A stretch of DNA of 32,000 bases from Rubeoparvulum massiliense (GCF_001049895.1 NZ_CVPE01000006.1:176441-208440); one strand, 5' to 3'. Counted from the stretch's first letter, positions 1 to 25,444 are shown. The notes: generated from the sequence alone by a model not told the origin. Program-made: numbers and translations.

Positions 1-129
1 TACATATATCCTCTGCTATGTTTAGCTTCTGTCATGTTATCCACCCCAATCATAATATAACATATATCAGATATTTTACAGGTTATTACCACTAAATATC
101 AGAATTTTTTCTAATCACTAAGTTAATAG

Positions 130-790
130 ATGCTGGACAATTGACGTGTCAAAAGACACGCTTTGTCCGAAGCCGTTTCATCTCATGGTTAAAGCCACGA
201 GTGTTCTCGGCTATTCCATAAAATAATATAAGGGGTCTTGATGACCTCGATGGGCACCACTTCATCATCAATAAACCTTTTTAGGATCGCTTGAAGTAAT
301 AATACATCATGAACTTTTTGAAATTCGTGATTTCAGAAAGTTTCTGAATGAGAGCAGAATAGGAGGCTTTAGGAAGAACTGGATACTTTAAAATAGCTAC
401 ATTCAATCTGGAGGATTAAACCGTGTTGTAACCTTCTCCGCAAGTCTTTCACCGGGGGAATCCGTGCGATGATTCAGGCAATAAACAAGTATAACATCGT
501 TTCTTTGTTGATTTCCATTGAAGCTTCATGGAGGGACTTTTTGGAGATCGTCTGAAGAATAGAGACCGTGTCCAGAATGGAAAAAATGCATCAAAACATC
601 GGGGAAGTTCTGTGTCGAATAAATCTTATATCCCAAATAAGTCACCTTGTAATATAATGGTAATAAGGAGTTCTCCTCCAATCTCAGGGTTTTGGTTGCA
701 ATTAGTTTTTTCGAGATTTGAGGAATTACTCCTTGTTCTAGGCGTTAAAGCCTTGAAACTGTTGGGCATAAATTTATGAAAATGATTCAT
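130..790 (-). pseudogene. Degraded C-terminal remnant of a Tn3-family (DDE_Tnp_Tn3) transposase
   Basis: Minus-strand translation, hopping between frames, gives these fragments in the expected order: ..ILQTISKKSLHEASMEINKETMLYLFI / IPPVKDLRRRLQHGLILQIECSYF / YSALIQKLSEITNFKKF / KTPYIILWNSREH. They parallel the conserved C-terminal blocks of Firmicute Tn3-family transposases as I recall them (SYSKQxxLYxALxEFGRIxKTxFIL; DxELRxxIxxQLNKxExxNxF; aIIxWNxxY). The fragments are separated by stops and frameshifts, and that strand has no ORF longer than 60 aa. Only about the last 200 of roughly 1000 codons remain. Boundaries are approximate. Confidence 0.55.
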
Positions 791-907
791 TTAATATCCT
801 GACTATATTTTTATCCCATGCAAAGAAATATAGAAAAATAAAATAAAGAAGGATATTAATGGGTATATAAGATCCATTTAAAAAACCATATGCTACCATT
901 AAAATAG

Positions 908-2491
908 ATGGAAAAAGGCTACTTCTTATTCAATGATTTTCAAAGGAAGGAGGAACTTGTCATATCAACTTATTATCAGCGATTAATCTCGTATTTGATC
1001 CTCTTCTTTTTACTCTGTTTTTGGATAACAGTCCTAATTGCTCCTGCAGTATATAGCTCCAGTGGACCATTCTCTCCGGATGATTTCTCTTATCCAACCG
1101 ATCTCAAACCTACATACTATCCTACACCCCAAGTAGTAGTCCCCAATGGTACCTCTGATGCAGGTACTGTTACACTTCCTACGATAGAAGTAGACTCCGT
1201 CCAACTAACAGCCTTGGAAATTGCATACCATAGTATAAGTGAAGTTGTATCTCATACTTTGGAGCAAATTAAGATCTATGCGCCAATTGGATGGGAACAA
1301 GGTTCCAAATGGTTCGCCGCTTTTGTAATTCAACCTACTACCTATCATTTCCACGTTCTCTATAATAGTAGAATAGATTCACTAGCATATTGGCATGCAT
1401 TCTTCAATCTTACACTAATGCTTAGTACAATTGTACTAAGCACGATTGTTGCTAGGCAGATCGGAGGCCAATATGTTGCTTCATCCATGCTATGGAATAG
1501 TCTCCAATATGGTCGCTTCAGTATTGGAATACTTCCAGTAACAACTACAACCACCTCCCGATTGATTTCTTCTAGTTGGATAGGCGGATGGATAAGGGGT
1601 AAACTCCCCATCCGAGAGGCTTTTGCCAGTAGGTTTTGGAAAGGAAGAAAGAGCAAGACTTCGGTGATAAATGCTTCTTCTGTTATGAGAGTAAGGCCAC
1701 AACAGTTAGGAGTCATTAGAAATCCATTGACAGGGAATCAGCCACGTTCTTTACAGTCAAAACCAGGTACGATACGATATGCTCAAGTAAATAAGTACCT
1801 AAAAAACAAATTACTTGAGGGGAAAGGGTATCGAGGTGGTGGAGGCTTTTCATTTCGGGGCGAGTTTCGTCAACAGATCGATGCTCCGAGATCAAGTCCC
1901 CCTGCATCTGCGAATCGTGGAAATACATCGAGTTCTTCTAGTTCAGGAAGTAGATCTACGTCAGGATCGATTCGAGGGAATAAGTTTCAATTGCCTAAAA
2001 ACTATAAGGAATACATCAAAGCTGTTGAAAATATGGGTCCAATCTATCGCATCACTAGAGAGCGTTTAAAACTGCCCAGTTCATCCTCCTCTCAGGGAAC
2101 GAAAGGGAAGGGTGAAACTAGACCTACCTGGAAACAGTCCGAAAAGGATGTGGCCAAGGAATATCCAGGCTATAAAGAACAGCAATCTTTTAAAGGCGGG
2201 GAGTCAGTGCAACATGGTACGAGGGGAAGTTCGAGGCCAGATCTTTATATTAAGGGTCATAGTATTGAGGTCAAAAATTATAATGTGACAACTACCTCAG
2301 GTCGAAGCAATTTGGTAAATAACGTATCTAATCAAGTGAATAAAAGAGTAAGTGATTTGCCTATAGGTACAAAACAAACTGTAATTATTGATGTTAGAGG
2401 ACAAAACGTTAGTAGACAGATATTACGAGAGATTAAGTTAGCAATAAATAACAAGACAAATGGAATAGCCAACATTATTTTTAAACAGTAG
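908..2491 (+). CDS. Membrane-anchored polymorphic-toxin-like protein with a C-terminal PD-(D/E)xK (restriction-endonuclease-fold) nuclease toxin domain
   Basis: 527-aa ORF. The N-terminus has a hydrophobic anchor or signal (LISYLILFFLLCFWITVLIAPAVYSSS) and a second hydrophobic segment lies near residue 170. A Gly/Ser/Arg low-complexity linker follows (RGGGGFSFRG...SSSSSSGSRSTSGS). The last ~110 aa read TWKQSEKDVAKEYPGYKEQQSFKGG..GTRGSSRPDLYIKGHSIEVKNYN...QVNKRVSDLPIGTKQTVIIDVRGQ. This is a PD...ExK nuclease core with the flanking pattern I recall from Tox-REase-type C-terminal toxin domains of Gram-positive polymorphic toxins. A small candidate immunity ORF follows immediately. Confidence 0.7.
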   Translation: MEKGYFLFNDFQRKEELVISTYYQRLISYLILFFLLCFWITVLIAPAVYSSSGPFSPDDFSYPTDLKPTYYPTPQVVVPNGTSDAGTVTLPTIEVDSVQLTALEIAYHSISEVVSHTLEQIKIYAPIGWEQGSKWFAAFVIQPTTYHFHVLYNSRIDSLAYWHAFFNLTLMLSTIVLSTIVARQIGGQYVASSMLWNSLQYGRFSIGILPVTTTTTSRLISSSWIGGWIRGKLPIREAFASRFWKGRKSKTSVINASSVMRVRPQQLGVIRNPLTGNQPRSLQSKPGTIRYAQVNKYLKNKLLEGKGYRGGGGFSFRGEFRQQIDAPRSSPPASANRGNTSSSSSSGSRSTSGSIRGNKFQLPKNYKEYIKAVENMGPIYRITRERLKLPSSSSSQGTKGKGETRPTWKQSEKDVAKEYPGYKEQQSFKGGESVQHGTRGSSRPDLYIKGHSIEVKNYNVTTTSGRSNLVNNVSNQVNKRVSDLPIGTKQTVIIDVRGQNVSRQILREIKLAINNKTNGIANIIFKQ

Positions 2492-2494
2492 GAT

Positions 2495-2920
2495 GTGAAT
2501 AAGATGGCAGTAGGTTTTTTAGTAGATTGCTTTTTTTATGAGGTTGGGAGAGGTGATTTTCTTCATTCATTTTTCTCAACAATTTCTTACCACTTAGAGA
2601 CGGAAGGATGGGGAACGAAATACCCCTATTTATTAAAAAGGCTATACAGGGATAAACTTTCATGGCTTGATGTAGGCAAGGCGCGTGAAGAATTAAGAGA
2701 TATTGAACGCCAATTGCAAGTGATGAGTCCAGATAAAGTAATATGGGACATTGATGATTTATCTCAAAAGCCTCCTTGGGGAGAAAATATTAGTCCAAAA
2801 GTAACAAATCTCGCAAACTATTTTGCTTCAAGTGATGGGAGAACTTTTTTTGAGTTACTATATGCTGCTTTTCAGGTTGCGGAAGAGGATAGGTGTGATA
2901 TTATTATTCACCAGGTATAA
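2495..2920 (+). CDS. Candidate cognate immunity protein for the upstream nuclease toxin
   Basis: 141-aa ORF that begins 3 nt after the toxin stop codon (TAG 2489-2491). The start is GTG 2495, or more likely ATG 2504, which has AGGA about 9 nt upstream. It is small, acidic and cytoplasmic-looking, with no TM segment. Position and size are typical of immunity genes. No family is named with confidence. Confidence 0.6.
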   Translation: MNKMAVGFLVDCFFYEVGRGDFLHSFFSTISYHLETEGWGTKYPYLLKRLYRDKLSWLDVGKAREELRDIERQLQVMSPDKVIWDIDDLSQKPPWGENISPKVTNLANYFASSDGRTFFELLYAAFQVAEEDRCDIIIHQV

Positions 2921-2964
2921 GGGGTCAGTCCCCCAGTGCGTTAAAGCGACGGGGGACTGACCCC
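2921..2964. repeat. GC-rich palindromic element, copy A (short variant); probable terminator for the toxin/immunity pair
   Basis: GGGGTCAGTCCCCC-AGTGCGTTAAAGCGAC-GGGGGACTGACCCC forms a perfect 14-bp stem. It starts directly after the TAA stop at 2918-2920. The outer 14 bp on each side, and most of the left arm, are shared with copy B at 3863-3914. Confidence 0.8.
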
Positions 2965-3034
2965 TATGTAATTATATCAACCTTGTGAAATTAGGAACAA
3001 AACAGTTCCATCTCACAGTAAAAGTTGTTAAGAT

Positions 3035-3859
3035 ATGTTGGGTCGATTTGAACAGGTAGATATTATCAGACAACATGAGTTGTTTTGCAGAAAAAAGGTG
3101 AAATCCTTGGATTCATTGTTTATCATACTATTAGTGATTGGGACGATCTCCTCATTTATTGGAACCTTAGCAGGTGGAGGTGGTCTAATCACTCTACCAG
3201 CCATGATGCTTGTAGGCATTCCTATCCATACAGGCATTGCTACGAATAAGTTTTCTTCAGCCTTTGCTGCATTAACCAGTGTCTCCTATTTACTCAAAGA
3301 GAAGCAGCTAACAGCTAAGGCCATTGGCTTTCTCGTCATGGTAGCTGCATTTGGAGGATTATTCGGCGCACTCATTACTGCCAGCATTGCAGAAAAGGCC
3401 ATGAATATTGTTGCCTTTATCCTTCTGCTTTTTGCCTTAGTTTTTACATTAGCCAATCGCAAATTGGGTGAGGTAGAGCAGAAGGAGAGTATGCCCCCTA
3501 GTTTTATCTCGAAAACGATGCCATTCTTGATCGCAACCTATGATGGTGGCTTCGGTCCCGGTTCATCTACATTTGGTATTCTCCACTATATGAATCAGCG
3601 AAGCACCTATATAAAAGCGGTTCAATTAACCAGGGTTCTCACCCTAGGTAGTAGCATCGGTGCCTTTCTTGTTTTTTATCAGACAGGCTATGTGAATTGG
3701 CATCATGCCATCGCCATGGCCATCGGCTCCGCACTAGGCTCCCAGCTAGGGTTGCTACTAGTGCCAAAGATTCCGCTCCGCTATGCGAAAGTGTTATTAC
3801 TAACCATCATGTTTTTACTGGTGGGAGAAGTGTTATATAAGATTCTGCAAGTGGTATAA
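3035..3859 (+). CDS. TSUP (TauE/SafE, DUF81) family anion/sulfite-exporter-like permease
   Basis: Polytopic membrane protein with the family-typical N-terminal motif GTLAGGGGLITLPAMMLVGIP..GIATNKFSS and a second internal repeat half. The true start is probably TTG 3107: AAAGGTG lies 6 nt upstream, the product would begin (M)DSLFIILLVIG, and the first 24 codons of the ORF are not family-like. Confidence 0.85.
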   Translation: MLGRFEQVDIIRQHELFCRKKVKSLDSLFIILLVIGTISSFIGTLAGGGGLITLPAMMLVGIPIHTGIATNKFSSAFAALTSVSYLLKEKQLTAKAIGFLVMVAAFGGLFGALITASIAEKAMNIVAFILLLFALVFTLANRKLGEVEQKESMPPSFISKTMPFLIATYDGGFGPGSSTFGILHYMNQRSTYIKAVQLTRVLTLGSSIGAFLVFYQTGYVNWHHAIAMAIGSALGSQLGLLLVPKIPLRYAKVLLLTIMFLLVGEVLYKILQVV

Positions 3860-4752: not shown

Positions 4753-4938
4753 TAGCATGGTGTATTCGTCTTGATGATTTTATGGAAAAAGAACACGTGT
4801 TCGCAAATCGTTACATATTAACGTATAATATAAGGAAATGAGACTGTGCTTTTACCTCTAAAGGTGAAGTATTCGCAGAGCTACACTGGTTGCTACTCTC
4901 ACGAAGCGCAAGCAGAAGATAAAGGGGTGAATCCTCCG

Positions 4939-5361
4939 ATGGTGGAGAATGATGGTGTATTATATTTTCCTGCTGAGTACGAAGCGTTTGTTCAGCTCGT
5001 TCGCCAACAGGTGGTGCTTCAGCTCCTTTGGCGAATGGTCATCTATGATCAAGAAAGGCTAAAAGCAGAGACGGAGCAGACCATCAAGGCAGCTCGGATT
5101 TTTCATGCCTATCTCCAAGCGGTGGAGCCGAAAATTATCGAGAATGTGAAGCAGGTGAAGCGTGATCTCCGCCAATTAGGTGGTCAAATCCTCCAAGAGA
5201 AGCAGGAGAAGCATGTTCGCGTCGTGGAAGCGCGCTTTCGAGGTTTTATTTATACCCAGCATTTTCATAATGTATTCCTCAAAACCTTATGTGAACAAGA
5301 ATTATTGGCTTATCTCGGCGATGTAGACGGAAGTTTGTTGATGAAACAAATGTTTGTATAG
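4939..5361 (+). CDS. Hypothetical cytoplasmic protein (helical/coiled-coil-like), family not recognised
   Basis: The ORF is open from GTG 4846. ATG 4939 is preferred because AAAGGGGTG lies about 9 nt upstream. Codon usage resembles the neighbouring genes. No diagnostic motif was found. Confidence 0.55.
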   Translation: MVENDGVLYFPAEYEAFVQLVRQQVVLQLLWRMVIYDQERLKAETEQTIKAARIFHAYLQAVEPKIIENVKQVKRDLRQLGGQILQEKQEKHVRVVEARFRGFIYTQHFHNVFLKTLCEQELLAYLGDVDGSLLMKQMFV

Positions 5362-23332: not shown

Positions 23333-25444
23333 ATGAAAGATGATGAATTTTTAATAAATGGCCAGGCCTTGCCTCCACTACTTGAAGTAGGCCGAGAACT
23401 TCTTCATGTACTGAACGAAGCAGGCTATGAGGCTTATTTTGTTGGCGGTGCAGTACGAGATTATTTGCTCCATCGGCCCATTCACGATGTGGATATTACA
23501 ACCAATGCCTTGCCCGATGAGGTGGTTCAGCTCTTTCCAGCCGTAATCCCAACAGGAATGGCTCATGGTACGGTGACGGTACGCTGGAAGGGCTTCTCCT
23601 TTGAAGTCACCACCTTCCGCACCGAGGGAGAGTACCTCGATCACCGACATCCTGCAGCGGTTCAATTCGTTCATTCCCTCACGGAGGATCTAGCCCGCCG
23701 TGACTTAACCATCAATGCCATGGCCATGGATGGGGAGGGGAAGCTATACGATCCCTATGGAGGGAGGGAGGATCTTCAGAATCGGCTGTTGCGAGCGGTA
23801 GGTGATCCTCAACAACGTTTTGCTGAGGATGCCCTGCGGATGATCCGTGTTTTCCGTTTTCAGTCACAGTACCAATTTCAGATTGAAGAGACCACGTTGC
23901 AGGGCATCAAGGCGGAAAGAGGTGGTCTTCCTCTAATTGCTGCAGAGCGGATCGCCGATGAGTTTTGCAAGCTTCTTCGTGGACCAGGGTTTCTCCATGC
24001 CCTTCAACTGCTCGCGCAATTTCTTGTGCTTCAGCATCCTCGCTTACCTATACTGGAAAAACTGGTGAAGCATCCACCTGCTCTGTTCTTGCAGAGACGG
24101 ATAGATTCCCTCCACTTCCTGGCTGAAGAGCCAATGGACCCACTGATTCTCCGGCTCTTATTACTTGGGCACATGGCCACGCTCAGTGAAGCAGAGTTTA
24201 GTAAATTGGGCTATGAGCTATTTTTGCCCCGCGAGACGCGAAGGCTTCTCACAAGCTCCTATGGCTTACTCAGTGAATGGATTGAAGAGAAGTATGCAGA
24301 GAATCACTGGAAGGCAGAATGGCTGGATCTGCCACAGGAATGCATCGCCTATACGTGGGCGGCCTATTGGATCTGTGGGAAGCTCAGCAAGGGAGAGCAA
24401 GAGATAGCTGAGCTTGGGGGTGCAAATCTTCATGAGCTCTATCAATCAGAACGTAGCCAGTGGCAACGTTTCTATGAGGAACTCCCCATCCGTCACTCCC
24501 AGGAATTGCAGCTCGATGGAAACCTGCTGCTGCAGTTGATTCCTGTAGCAGCAGGACCATGGATTGCGCGACGGCTAGAGCAACTGGTCTTGGCTGTTCA
24601 TATGGGGCATCTTAAGAATGATCGTGAGGAGCTATGCCACTTTCTGCAGCAGGGCTATGCCGAAGAACTGCAAATCCGTGAGCATCTTCATACTGAATGG
24701 CTAGGTCACCAACTCTATGTCCTACCTGTAGTGGATAGCACGCAACGGGAAGCACAACGACTGTGGAAAAAGGGTGGTGCTAATGGAACGGTGGTGGTAG
24801 CACAGCATCAAACTGCTGGTCGTGGTACGAGAGGACGAATCTGGCATTCGCCTCCACAATCAGGAGCTTGGTTTAGTATGCTCTTGCAGCTCCCCATCGA
24901 TCTTAAGAGGGCACCTATCATCACCCTCCTTACAGCGGTGGCACTTTATGAAACATTGCTCAACTGGTGTCAACCAGAACAGCTTCAGATTAAATGGCCC
25001 AATGATCTCCTTCTAGCAGGGAAGAAATGTGCAGGTATCTTAACAGAGCTACATCATCATGATGAGCATGGTGCTCAATTGGTCATCGGTGTTGGGGTCA
25101 ACCTGAACCAGGAGCACAATGACTTTCCAATGGAATTACAGGAGCACGCAACCTCCTTAGCTATGGGAACTGGCGAAAAGGTCCAACCTTCATTGCTGAT
25201 TGCCTTATTCTTAGCTAAAATGGAGGAATGGCTGGCCCTATATCAACAAGAAGGAAATTCGGCTGTGCTTCATGCATGGACAAGCTATGCTGGAATGATC
25301 GGTCAACGGGTCATGACACAGCTAGAAGGCAAGGATACCAATGTGATTATCCATGGCTTGGATGAGCAGGGTAGACTCCTTCTCCTTGATAAGCAGGGTA
25401 CTATTCACACTTTAGTTTCAGGGGAGATCAGACTCAATCCTTGA
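23333..25444 (+). CDS. cca/birA: Fusion protein: CCA-adding tRNA nucleotidyltransferase (residues 1 to ~442) joined in frame to the catalytic and C-terminal domains of biotin-[acetyl-CoA-carboxylase] ligase BirA (residues ~443-703); the BirA wHTH domain is absent
   Basis: Cca part: AYFVGGAVRDYLLHRPIHDVDITT, RRDLTINAMAMD, FAEDALRMIRVFRF, and the C-terminal GPWIARRLEQLVLAVHMGHLKNDREEL (B. subtilis has GKWVSEELQWIEQAVVTGKLSNQKKHI). BirA part: from A443 (nt 24659), AEELQIREHLHTEWLGHQLYVLPVVDSTQ...VVAQHQTAGRGTRGRIWHSPP..GAWFSMLL...IKWPNDLLLAGKKCAGILTE is collinear with B. subtilis BirA from about residue 68 onward. It is a single uninterrupted 703-codon ORF. Confidence 0.85.
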   Translation: MKDDEFLINGQALPPLLEVGRELLHVLNEAGYEAYFVGGAVRDYLLHRPIHDVDITTNALPDEVVQLFPAVIPTGMAHGTVTVRWKGFSFEVTTFRTEGEYLDHRHPAAVQFVHSLTEDLARRDLTINAMAMDGEGKLYDPYGGREDLQNRLLRAVGDPQQRFAEDALRMIRVFRFQSQYQFQIEETTLQGIKAERGGLPLIAAERIADEFCKLLRGPGFLHALQLLAQFLVLQHPRLPILEKLVKHPPALFLQRRIDSLHFLAEEPMDPLILRLLLLGHMATLSEAEFSKLGYELFLPRETRRLLTSSYGLLSEWIEEKYAENHWKAEWLDLPQECIAYTWAAYWICGKLSKGEQEIAELGGANLHELYQSERSQWQRFYEELPIRHSQELQLDGNLLLQLIPVAAGPWIARRLEQLVLAVHMGHLKNDREELCHFLQQGYAEELQIREHLHTEWLGHQLYVLPVVDSTQREAQRLWKKGGANGTVVVAQHQTAGRGTRGRIWHSPPQSGAWFSMLLQLPIDLKRAPIITLLTAVALYETLLNWCQPEQLQIKWPNDLLLAGKKCAGILTELHHHDEHGAQLVIGVGVNLNQEHNDFPMELQEHATSLAMGTGEKVQPSLLIALFLAKMEEWLALYQQEGNSAVLHAWTSYAGMIGQRVMTQLEGKDTNVIIHGLDEQGRLLLLDKQGTIHTLVSGEIRLNP

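Follow-up and report, generated by a model that had tools for sequence, protein, structure and literature searches.

Rubeoparvulum massiliense is a spore-forming gut member of the Bacillales with a genome of 2.84 Mb and a GC content of 43.75% (PMC5198730). We analysed a 32,000-nt stretch of its DNA (GCF_001049895.1, NZ_CVPE01000006.1:176441-208440), in the following called the window, in which an earlier note made from the sequence alone had pointed to a nuclease toxin gene and a downstream immunity candidate between positions 908 and 2920. This chromosomal locus is probably a two-gene polymorphic toxin-immunity cassette. It is best read as a polymorphic toxin with a Sec signal and a lineage-restricted constant N-terminal domain, a category which has already been described (MAFB-N, Microscilla-N, APD1/2, BetaH). 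The nuclease domain and its immunity family are known as well and can be regarded as textbook cases; the new part is the N-terminal module, which comes from one little-studied species. Both open reading frames (ORFs) have the positions given in the earlier note, and the following parts can be distinguished:

908-2491, plus strand: toxin ORF, 527 amino acids (aa) as annotated; WP_048601855.1, 'hypothetical protein', Rubeoparvulum massiliense

977-1054, plus strand: N-terminal export signal or signal-anchor, residues 24-49, LISYLILFFLLCFWITVLIAPA followed by VY

1055-1378, plus strand: acidic region, residues 50-157, isoelectric point (pI) 4.7, with the motifs SSSGPF..PTDLKP..PTPQ..SDAG and VIQPTTY

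1379-1471, plus strand: second hydrophobic segment, residues 158-188, Kyte-Doolittle maximum 1.92

1472-1687, plus strand: very basic region, residues 189-260, pI 12.0, ending in RFWK(G/E)R; shortened relative to the paralogues by deletions in its Gly/Ser-rich part

1688-2119, plus strand: Arg/Gly/Ser low-complexity linker, residues 261-404, pI 11.3, without homologues

2120-2491, plus strand: Tox-REase-10 nuclease domain, residues 405-527 and stop codon

2495-2920, plus strand: Imm70 immunity ORF, maximally 141 aa from GTG 2495; likely start ATG 2504 (138 aa)

Judged by its signature residues and its predicted fold, the C-terminal part of the toxin (~125 aa) is a Tox-REase-10 domain with the PD-(D/E)xK restriction-endonuclease fold. 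The family is defined by the pattern 'E, Q, [DE], ExKNY, R, DxRG' (Zhang et al. 2012, PMC3482391). In the window protein these residues are E412, Q425, D445, E454-x-K456-N457-Y458, R480 and D495-x-R497-G498, and they belong to the motifs QSE (410-412), RPDLY (443-447), EVKNY (454-458) and DVRGQ (495-499). The domain was assigned to this family because the full signature matches and an Imm70 gene lies next to it. The motifs quoted in the earlier note (the glutamate region around SEKDV, the PD-(D/E)xK core and DVRGQ) are found where it had placed them. A total of 62 proteins match solely residues ~400-527, at 50-70% identity. They include 539-aa LXG toxins of the B. subtilis group annotated as 'ribonuclease YeeF family' (63-70% identical), which were found again as PHROG 17521. 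The N-termini of the 62 proteins are of the LXG, PT-TG, RHS, Hint, DUF4280, WXG100 and DUF4244 types. Among these matches the same toxin domain thus stands on other trafficking modules, which is one criterion for polymorphic toxins. An alignment of 31 domain sequences has the invariant or nearly invariant columns ..RPxWxQSE..Q..RP(D/E)..ExKNY..Q..R..DxRGQ, comprising E28 (near-invariant), Q41, D61 (D/E), E70-V-K72-N73-Y74, R96 and D111-x-R113-G114. An extension of the domain to residue ~361, considered from the comparison with protein P0038, turned out to be merely a gapped alignment of low similarity; the domain starts with RPTWKQSE at residue 405.

An AlphaFold2 model of the domain, built on the 31-sequence alignment, reached a predicted local distance difference test score (pLDDT) of 90 and a predicted template modelling score of 0.81. 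Its elements follow the order alpha-beta-beta-beta-alpha-beta, as in the PD-(D/E)xK core; E412 is placed on helix 1, D445 at the start of a strand, E454-x-K456 on the following strand, and Q476 and R480 on helix 2. The restriction-endonuclease fold proposed for the C-terminus is thus recovered by the prediction, in agreement with the Tox-REase-10 signature. A comparison of the model with the PDB by Foldseek gave E-values of 0.025-0.15. Most top matches are PD-(D/E)xK nucleases, and all matches with a probability of at least ~0.8 belong to this group (Hef/XPF/Mus81, BstEII, Card1, Can2, Cdn1). Sequence searches of the PDB with the domain, as a single sequence and as a profile, gave no match, and neither Pfam nor NCBIfam matched the 527-aa protein at E<=1. 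To our knowledge Pfam holds no Tox-REase-10 model, from which the empty Pfam scan of this domain would follow.

The downstream ORF matches Pfam Imm70 (PF15601; score 177.8 bits, cut-off 26.7, E 9.5e-53), and the match spans positions 2-131 of the 131-position profile, so that the immunity function suspected from its position is matched by an immunity family. Imm54 and Imm70 are the immunity proteins of Tox-REase-10, and Tox-REase-10 is the sole toxin partner listed for Imm70 (PMC3482391). By this profile match the product is a member of the cognate immunity family of the toxin. A length of 141 aa and a distance of 3 nt to the toxin gene, as reported initially, are correct for the maximal ORF. 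Nevertheless, the start is more likely ATG 2504, because the gene callers of three other assemblies give a protein of 138 aa; the intergenic gap is then 12 nt. Imm70 is acidic (pI 4.9) and has neither a hydrophobic segment nor a signal sequence. As it lacks a hydrophobic segment, it should be cytoplasmic. Matches of Imm70 in the PDB were solely to designed repeat proteins and were discarded as spurious.

None of the known trafficking modules is recognised in the first ~400 aa by Pfam or NCBIfam at E<=1 (the same holds for LXG, PF04740, in the whole toxin), and the N-terminal hydrophobic segment, the second hydrophobic segment and the Arg/Gly/Ser linker are all present, as had been described. 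A first, word-indexed search revealed one full-length match, a 99% identical allele. In an exhaustive phmmer search with residues 1-395, two relatives and no more were recovered from 1.84 billion cluster representatives. They are P0064 (796 aa, E 3e-41, with 44% of residues 11-192 identical) and P0065 (611 aa, E 5e-29), which are 53% identical to each other over 318 residues. When 5.8 billion proteins were searched with a profile, the only matches were P0065 and P0001, an allele of the window toxin. Both relatives lead back to the same species. P0064 is R. massiliense WP_048601806.1 and is encoded on the same 1.23-Mb contig, ~49 accession numbers ahead of the window toxin. The gene of P0065 lies on L002, a contig of 9.2 kb whose source, sample SRR33304997, contains a window-type allele as well; the GGDEF response regulator on this contig is identical to R. 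massiliense WP_048601969.1. According to these alignments the N-terminal ~260 aa are a conserved coding module, so far known from R. massiliense alone. Scans of 185,579 GTDB representative genomes and of JGI metagenomes gave pattern matches, none of them a confirmed relative of the module; the paralogue counts are lower bounds, and the source genome of R. massiliense seemingly lies outside the scanned genome collections. No match for the module was obtained in Pfam, NCBIfam, PADLOC, PHROGs or the PDB.

The three proteins share five parts of the module: an N-terminal hydrophobic signal, the motif series VYSSxGPF..FSxPTD(L/I)KP..PTPQ..SDAG, a helical part extending to VIQPTT(Y/F), a hydrophobic helix, and a Gly/Ser/Arg-rich stretch extending to RFWK(G/E)R (residues 242-247 of the window protein, nt 1631-1648). 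Within the acidic region (residues 50-157) the identity of the window protein is 44% with P0064 and 37-40% with P0065. Kyte-Doolittle analysis revealed two strongly hydrophobic segments in the window protein, residues 24-52 and 158-188, and the segment matching the latter is glycine-zipper-like in the paralogues (GIVGVGALLSWGMVG). A PrsW-type domain with eight transmembrane (TM) helices is not indicated, with only two hydrophobic segments and no Pfam match. Each of the three family members has a hydrophobic segment at the N-terminus. In the window protein and P0064 it consists of a 24-residue hydrophobic core containing LLCFW and lacking a lipobox; both signals may be uncleaved anchors. The boundary between APA and VY in the window protein is a possible signal peptidase I site. 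The linker (residues ~261-395) contains 25 Arg and Lys and 41 Ser, Gly and Thr residues. A structural model of the module, based on the three-sequence alignment, is helical and of low confidence (pLDDT 36).

One N-terminal module is thus combined with three different C-termini, a Tox-REase-10 nuclease in the window protein, a phospholipase-like domain in P0065 and 430 aa without recognised relationship in P0064. The C-terminus of P0065 carries the precomputed annotation Phospholipase-like (PF26363) with a GHSKGG nucleophile elbow, and gave weak matches to Lipase_3, Mbeg1-like and SA1320-family proteins. The C-terminal 430 aa of P0064 consist of acidic helical repeats with several moderately hydrophobic segments; they have no match in Pfam, NCBIfam, PHROG or PADLOC and no homologue. 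By sequence comparison the N-terminal module is the constant part and the cargo varies, as is generally required of polymorphic toxins, and two of the three cargos are recognisable toxins. The survey of N-terminal homologues, which had been proposed as a check, consequently found different C-termini and not always the same one.

The paralogue P0065 adds information on export. Its ORF on L002 runs upstream of the called ATG, giving MFTIRLKAKRSFTIALLLILLIGC followed by S, and from the upstream start the protein has a classical lipoprotein signal (RLKAKRSFTIALLLILLIGC) with the lipobox LIGC. This longer form is used by the gene call of another assembly (P0079, 636 aa). With a hydrophobic, presumably Sec-type signal in the window protein and the LIGC lipobox in P0065, the terms 'orphan' and 'no recognisable delivery type' in the earlier note were overstated. 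The stop codon of the P0065 gene overlaps the start of a 310-aa ankyrin-repeat ORF (L002 3435-4367) with a lipoprotein signal of its own (LLSSC; lipobox LSSC). Among the recognised classes of immunity proteins is one with ankyrin repeats, 'Imm-ank' (PMC3482391). Since this immunity candidate is exported, the lipase would attack the membrane from outside. The ankyrin lipoprotein also matches the PADLOC candidate PDC-M72A (E 6.7e-10), which probably reflects similarity at the level of the ankyrin repeats and not a defence function. Upstream of the P0065 gene, L002 177-903 contains two overlapping small ORFs, one of 114 aa with the HExxH-like motif HEYSH followed by one of 129 aa, neither of which has a match in Pfam or NCBIfam. 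A possible reading is an orphan toxin fragment of the metallopeptidase type together with its immunity gene, which would make the locus a small toxin island.

These homologues also bear on the reading that the gene is the remnant of an LXG toxin of a type VII secretion system (T7SS), frameshifted or rearranged, with the N-terminal 400 codons being a chance or antisense frame. In the first search database homologues were found for the C-terminal quarter only, and weak minus-strand matches were located at 1501-1539, which both seemed to speak for such an origin. However, the N-terminal region has protein-level homologues (E 3e-41), and an alignment of its profile with an 11-sequence LXG profile by hhalign gave a probability of 0.04%. 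A tblastn search of all 63 matches against the other five frames of positions 1-3200 yielded nothing below E 0.1, and a frame that stays open over the first 395 codons of the toxin ORF has a chance probability of ~2e-12 with the base composition of this region. The minus-strand signal arises from a short palindromic low-complexity stretch, AGTACAATTGTACT. A hidden LXG or PT-TG remnant in another frame was rejected. The recurrent match at 1501-1539 and a self-match at 1369-1500 both trace back to this palindrome, which encodes STIVLSTIV on both strands. No significant internal rearrangement or inverted repeat was found in the toxin ORF. We regard a remnant of this kind as extremely improbable.

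For secretion, processing, toxicity and neutralisation we infer the following mechanism from the sequence and from analogy to known toxins. The N-terminal signal would bring the protein to the Sec translocon, and at the cell envelope the constant module would anchor or present it. Located between hydrophobic helix and toxin, the very basic stretch might aid the nuclease in reaching and crossing the anionic envelope of a competitor, and processing near the conserved RFWK(G/E)R is possible. In cells lacking Imm70 the nuclease would degrade nucleic acid and kill them, and the cytoplasmic Imm70 would shield the producer and its kin. The cassette may have been acquired by recombination from the Bacillaceae pool of LXG/T7SS toxins (~70% identity) onto a resident constant module.

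Several points weigh against the interpretation as a Sec-exported polymorphic toxin. The family has three members only, from a single species, and the third C-terminus cannot be called a toxin because it has no homologues. The Foldseek E-values are weak, the best being 0.025. The window copy is the more divergent one, and the Gly-rich part conserved between the paralogues is partly deleted in it. Toxin and Imm70 genes together show 9 nonsynonymous and 1 synonymous codon changes between strains, and the allele P0001 (contig L001) carries G465D (codon at window 2300-2302). Finally, according to the positive-inside rule the C-terminus should be cytoplasmic in the producer, as the helix 158-188 precedes ~200 residues of pI 11-12; this conflicts with simple Sec export.

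The last point is the basis of an alternative in which the protein is a membrane-tethered toxin. The two TM segments would form a hairpin with the acidic residues 50-157 as a surface loop, and the linker and nuclease would lie inside, bound to Imm70. Delivery or activation would then require a route besides Sec, for which regulated intramembrane proteolysis, membrane vesicles, lysis or another exporter are candidates. Alternatively, the protein might act in cis, as an effector of addiction or abortive infection. The topology is consistent with this: both hydrophobic segments are strong, the region after the second one (pI 12.0 and 11.3, 35 Arg and Lys) should be inside by the positive-inside rule, Imm70 has no signal sequence, and the 24-residue hydrophobic core without lipobox is anchor-like rather than typical of a cleaved signal. 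Moreover, a mix of nuclease, phospholipase-like and hydrophobic cargo is typical of defence-system effectors as well. On the other hand, neither toxin and Imm70 nor the paralogues P0064 and P0065 match any PADLOC family at E<=0.1, and the window annotation shows no sensor or protease gene next to the pair. Imm70 and Tox-REase-10 have been described in polymorphic toxin systems only (PMC3482391), and the partner of the paralogue is an exported ankyrin lipoprotein, implying intercellular delivery. We therefore consider the tethered arrangement unlikely, and the abortive-infection role that had been offered as an option in the earlier note found no positive support.

The region upstream of the hydrophobic signal contains two elements that may bear on the expression of the toxin gene:

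877-905, plus strand: promoter-like site, -35 TTTAAA, 17-nt spacer, -10 TAAAAT

949-964, plus strand: Shine-Dalgarno sequence and candidate start, GGAGG 949-953, 8-nt spacer, in-frame ATA 962-964

The annotated ATG at 908 has no Shine-Dalgarno sequence and lies 2 nt past the predicted -10 element, and after the Shine-Dalgarno sequence no in-frame ATG, GTG or TTG was found in the window. The gene on L002 has the same arrangement (GGAGG 1521-1525, ATA 1534-1536). Indeed, the 5′ regions of the window gene (877-964) and the L002 gene (1440-1536) align collinearly and almost without gaps, and promoter-like block, Shine-Dalgarno sequence and ATA are common to both genes in the same order. Both the window protein and P0064 have a seemingly conserved 'RKEE' at the N-terminus; in the window it is the Shine-Dalgarno sequence read in frame, and by analogy the same would apply to P0064. 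We suspect that translation starts ~18 codons downstream of the annotated ATG, possibly at the non-canonical ATA 962, in which case the protein would have ~509 aa. With the ATA as start it would have a short, signal-peptide-like n-region.

The window was compared with three other assemblies (L001, L003, L004). The DNA upstream of the toxin gene is variable, and two features were located there:

76-167, no strand assigned: plasmid-like stretch, 92 nt non-coding, 84-89% identical to unannotated plasmid DNA

652-858, no strand assigned: strain-variable segment, 207 bp, missing from contig L001, which is 99% identical in other respects

The matches of 76-167 are to one Brevibacillus halotolerans plasmid (in two places) and 38 Enterococcus plasmids; 33 of these 39 plasmids are typed as conjugative. 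The stretch has no Rfam match and may be a fragment or end of a mobile element. The junctions of the 207-bp indel share a TAATGG-type microhomology. Repeated or unstable DNA is suggested here by L003 and L004, since each of these contigs breaks off 140 bp ahead of the toxin gene. A transposase remnant, assumed to lie beside the pair, was not confirmed: four short minus-strand ORFs (149-790) have no Pfam match, and tblastn of the concatenated remnant found only the same unannotated spot in Brevibacillus, leaving the 92-nt plasmid match as the sole support for it. The GC content is 0.35-0.41 in positions 1-2920 and 0.47 in 5000-32000, in line with the A+T richness noticed before, and GC at third codon positions is 0.28-0.33 for the pair and 0.44-0.54 for the flanking genes. 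The low value of the pair fits a horizontally acquired or fast-evolving island.

The ratio of codon changes in the pair differs clearly from that of the flanking TauE, Vut_1, YhjD-like, PfkB and IndA genes, which show 5 nonsynonymous and 34 synonymous changes (Fisher p 8.6e-6). Residue 465 is a glycine conserved to at least 90% across the Tox-REase-10 alignment, so that G465D may be an attenuating or inactivating change; L001 has in addition one nonsynonymous change in Imm70. The high nonsynonymous share could be due to diversifying selection of toxin-immunity pairs or to relaxed selection on a retiring locus. In the latter case the locus would be decaying and kept mainly for the protection that Imm70 affords against REase-10 toxins of neighbouring Bacillales, with an undelivered toxin drifting. 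The codon changes, the exchange of the near-invariant glycine in one allele, the deletions in the Gly-rich region relative to the paralogues and the degenerate, indel-variable DNA of the upstream ~900 bp are all in agreement with decay, as is an annotated ATG without Shine-Dalgarno sequence, with the non-canonical ATA as the sole in-frame codon at the proper distance. Nevertheless, the frame of 527 codons is intact in four of four assemblies, the window allele keeps all catalytic residues of the signature, and promoter-like block and Shine-Dalgarno sequence are conserved with the paralogue. As the single difference in Imm70 is a nonsynonymous one, better conservation of the immunity gene than of the toxin is not apparent. 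A high ratio of nonsynonymous to synonymous changes is also expected if toxin-immunity pairs are under diversifying selection, and the counts are small. We consider decay quite unlikely. Among the flanking genes, the 171-aa YhjD-like ORF (4846-5361; PF26325 by the precomputed L003 annotation) differs between strains by 2 nonsynonymous and 0 synonymous changes; its neighbours show almost solely synonymous differences.

The rest of the 32-kb window consists of ordinary chromosomal genes of Bacillales. They encode TauE, Vut_1, a PfkB-family kinase with a helix-turn-helix domain, pseudouridine-5′-phosphate glycosidase, an ArsR regulator and a P-type ATPase, MoCF, YlbF/YmcA, a transporter of the major facilitator superfamily (MFS), Usp, an M1 peptidase, DUF420, YitT, MazG, DapB, MgsA, BshB/BshA-like proteins, CCA-adding enzyme and BirA, a DinG-like helicase, a Rex-like protein and an LCP protein. 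As had been noted before, genes of a T7SS, a type VI secretion system or a contact-dependent inhibition system are absent from the window, and so are PrsW and S8-peptidase genes. Rfam gave only a chance-level snoRNA match in positions 1-3200. Directly at the end of the pair an inverted repeat is found:

2920-2965, no strand assigned: perfect inverted repeat of 15 bp, arms AGGGGTCAGTCCCCC and GGGGGACTGACCCCT, 16-nt loop

It overlaps the stop codon of Imm70. No T-tract follows it; it is not a canonical intrinsic terminator and was not called by the terminator scan. A single 703-aa ORF (23333-25444) has the domains of a CCA-adding enzyme (PolyA_pol, tRNA_NucTran2_2) as well as those of a biotin-protein ligase (BPL_LplA_LipB, BPL_C). 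The cca and birA genes of B. subtilis lie next to each other and are separate. The ORF could be a true fusion or the result of a missed stop codon or a frameshift.

The intercellular delivery of large protein toxins that has been characterised in Gram-positive bacteria occurs almost entirely by T7SS/LXG or by wall-anchored RHS proteins such as WapA. Other Tox-REase-10/Imm70 pairs have the same C-terminal domain signature and the same immunity family immediately downstream, and they use LXG (T7SS), PT-TG, RHS, FilH and similar N-termini, in contrast to the window protein, which has none of these. Tox-REase-10 has already been listed among the Sec ('T2SS') exported toxins (Zhang et al. 2012, PMC3482391). 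Furthermore, lineage-specific constant N-domains following a signal peptide are described as MAFB-N, Microscilla-N (one species) and APD1/2 (signal peptide and lipobox) (PMC3482391). The family from R. massiliense resembles these in having a putative signal peptide (APD1/2 and P0065 additionally have a lipobox), a lineage-restricted domain and varied C-terminal effectors. It differs in that there is no sequence relationship (no Pfam match), the host is a monoderm member of the Bacillales, and an internal hydrophobic, glycine-zipper helix is combined with a long polycationic segment, which is undescribed for MAFB-N, Microscilla-N and APD1/2. The new delivery architecture proposed in the earlier note therefore stands as far as the domain is concerned, which is new; it falls within a known architectural class and is not yet a demonstrated new delivery system.

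A further-reaching idea is that the ~260-aa module is a self-contained, T7SS-independent delivery device of monoderms. A Sec or lipoprotein signal would insert the module in the membrane, the acidic surface region would recognise the target, and the glycine-zipper helix together with the polycationic segment would carry interchangeable cargo (nuclease, lipase or a third effector) across the envelope of the neighbour. If true, this would be a new trafficking class for Gram-positive polymorphic toxins, visible so far in Rubeoparvulum alone. We put it forward as tentative and somewhat doubtful.

The SitA lipoprotein toxins of Myxococcus, which are polymorphic as well, share with the family a modular build with lipobox-mediated membrane anchoring, a family-specific N-region, swappable C-terminal nucleases and immunity genes located next to the toxin genes (Vassallo et al. 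2017, PMC5562445; PMC8546572). Nevertheless, their host is diderm, and they depend on outer-membrane fusion and exchange by TraAB, which has no monoderm counterpart; no sequence similarity exists either.

By analogy, the closest mechanistic precedent for the window toxin would be S8-PTS. These systems consist of a signal peptide, an acidic BetaH domain of ~120 aa, a dibasic cleavage site and a swappable toxin (Li, Tan, Zhang 2022, PMC9424270). In S8-Ntox35 of S. aureus, cleavage was proposed to expose a cationic amphipathic peptide that guides the RNase to the membranes of target cells (Mwangi et al. 2026, PMC13556192), and the cationic segment was found experimentally to be a membrane-homing element (PMC13556192). 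Hosts of S8-PTS/BetaH are Gram-positive, delivery is Sec-dependent and T7SS-independent, and an immunity gene lies downstream (PMC9424270, PMC13556192). The window protein likewise has an acidic N-domain (50-157; ~110-120 aa in both cases), basic motifs (RFWKGRKSK) and a cationic stretch, followed by a nuclease and an immunity gene. Unlike S8-PTS, no S8 peptidase gene is present in the window or in the 9.2-kb L002 locus, and a hydrophobic helix lies inside the window module. The latter is predicted, at low confidence, to be helical (pLDDT 36); the fold of BetaH is a sheet of seven strands with a helix. The Sec-dependent S8-PTS/BetaH was mechanistically characterised only in 2026. If the family from R. 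massiliense is a second, unrelated Sec-signal carrier, monoderms would have invented such carriers repeatedly, and its module could serve as a compact system for studying how a folded enzyme crosses the Gram-positive envelope.

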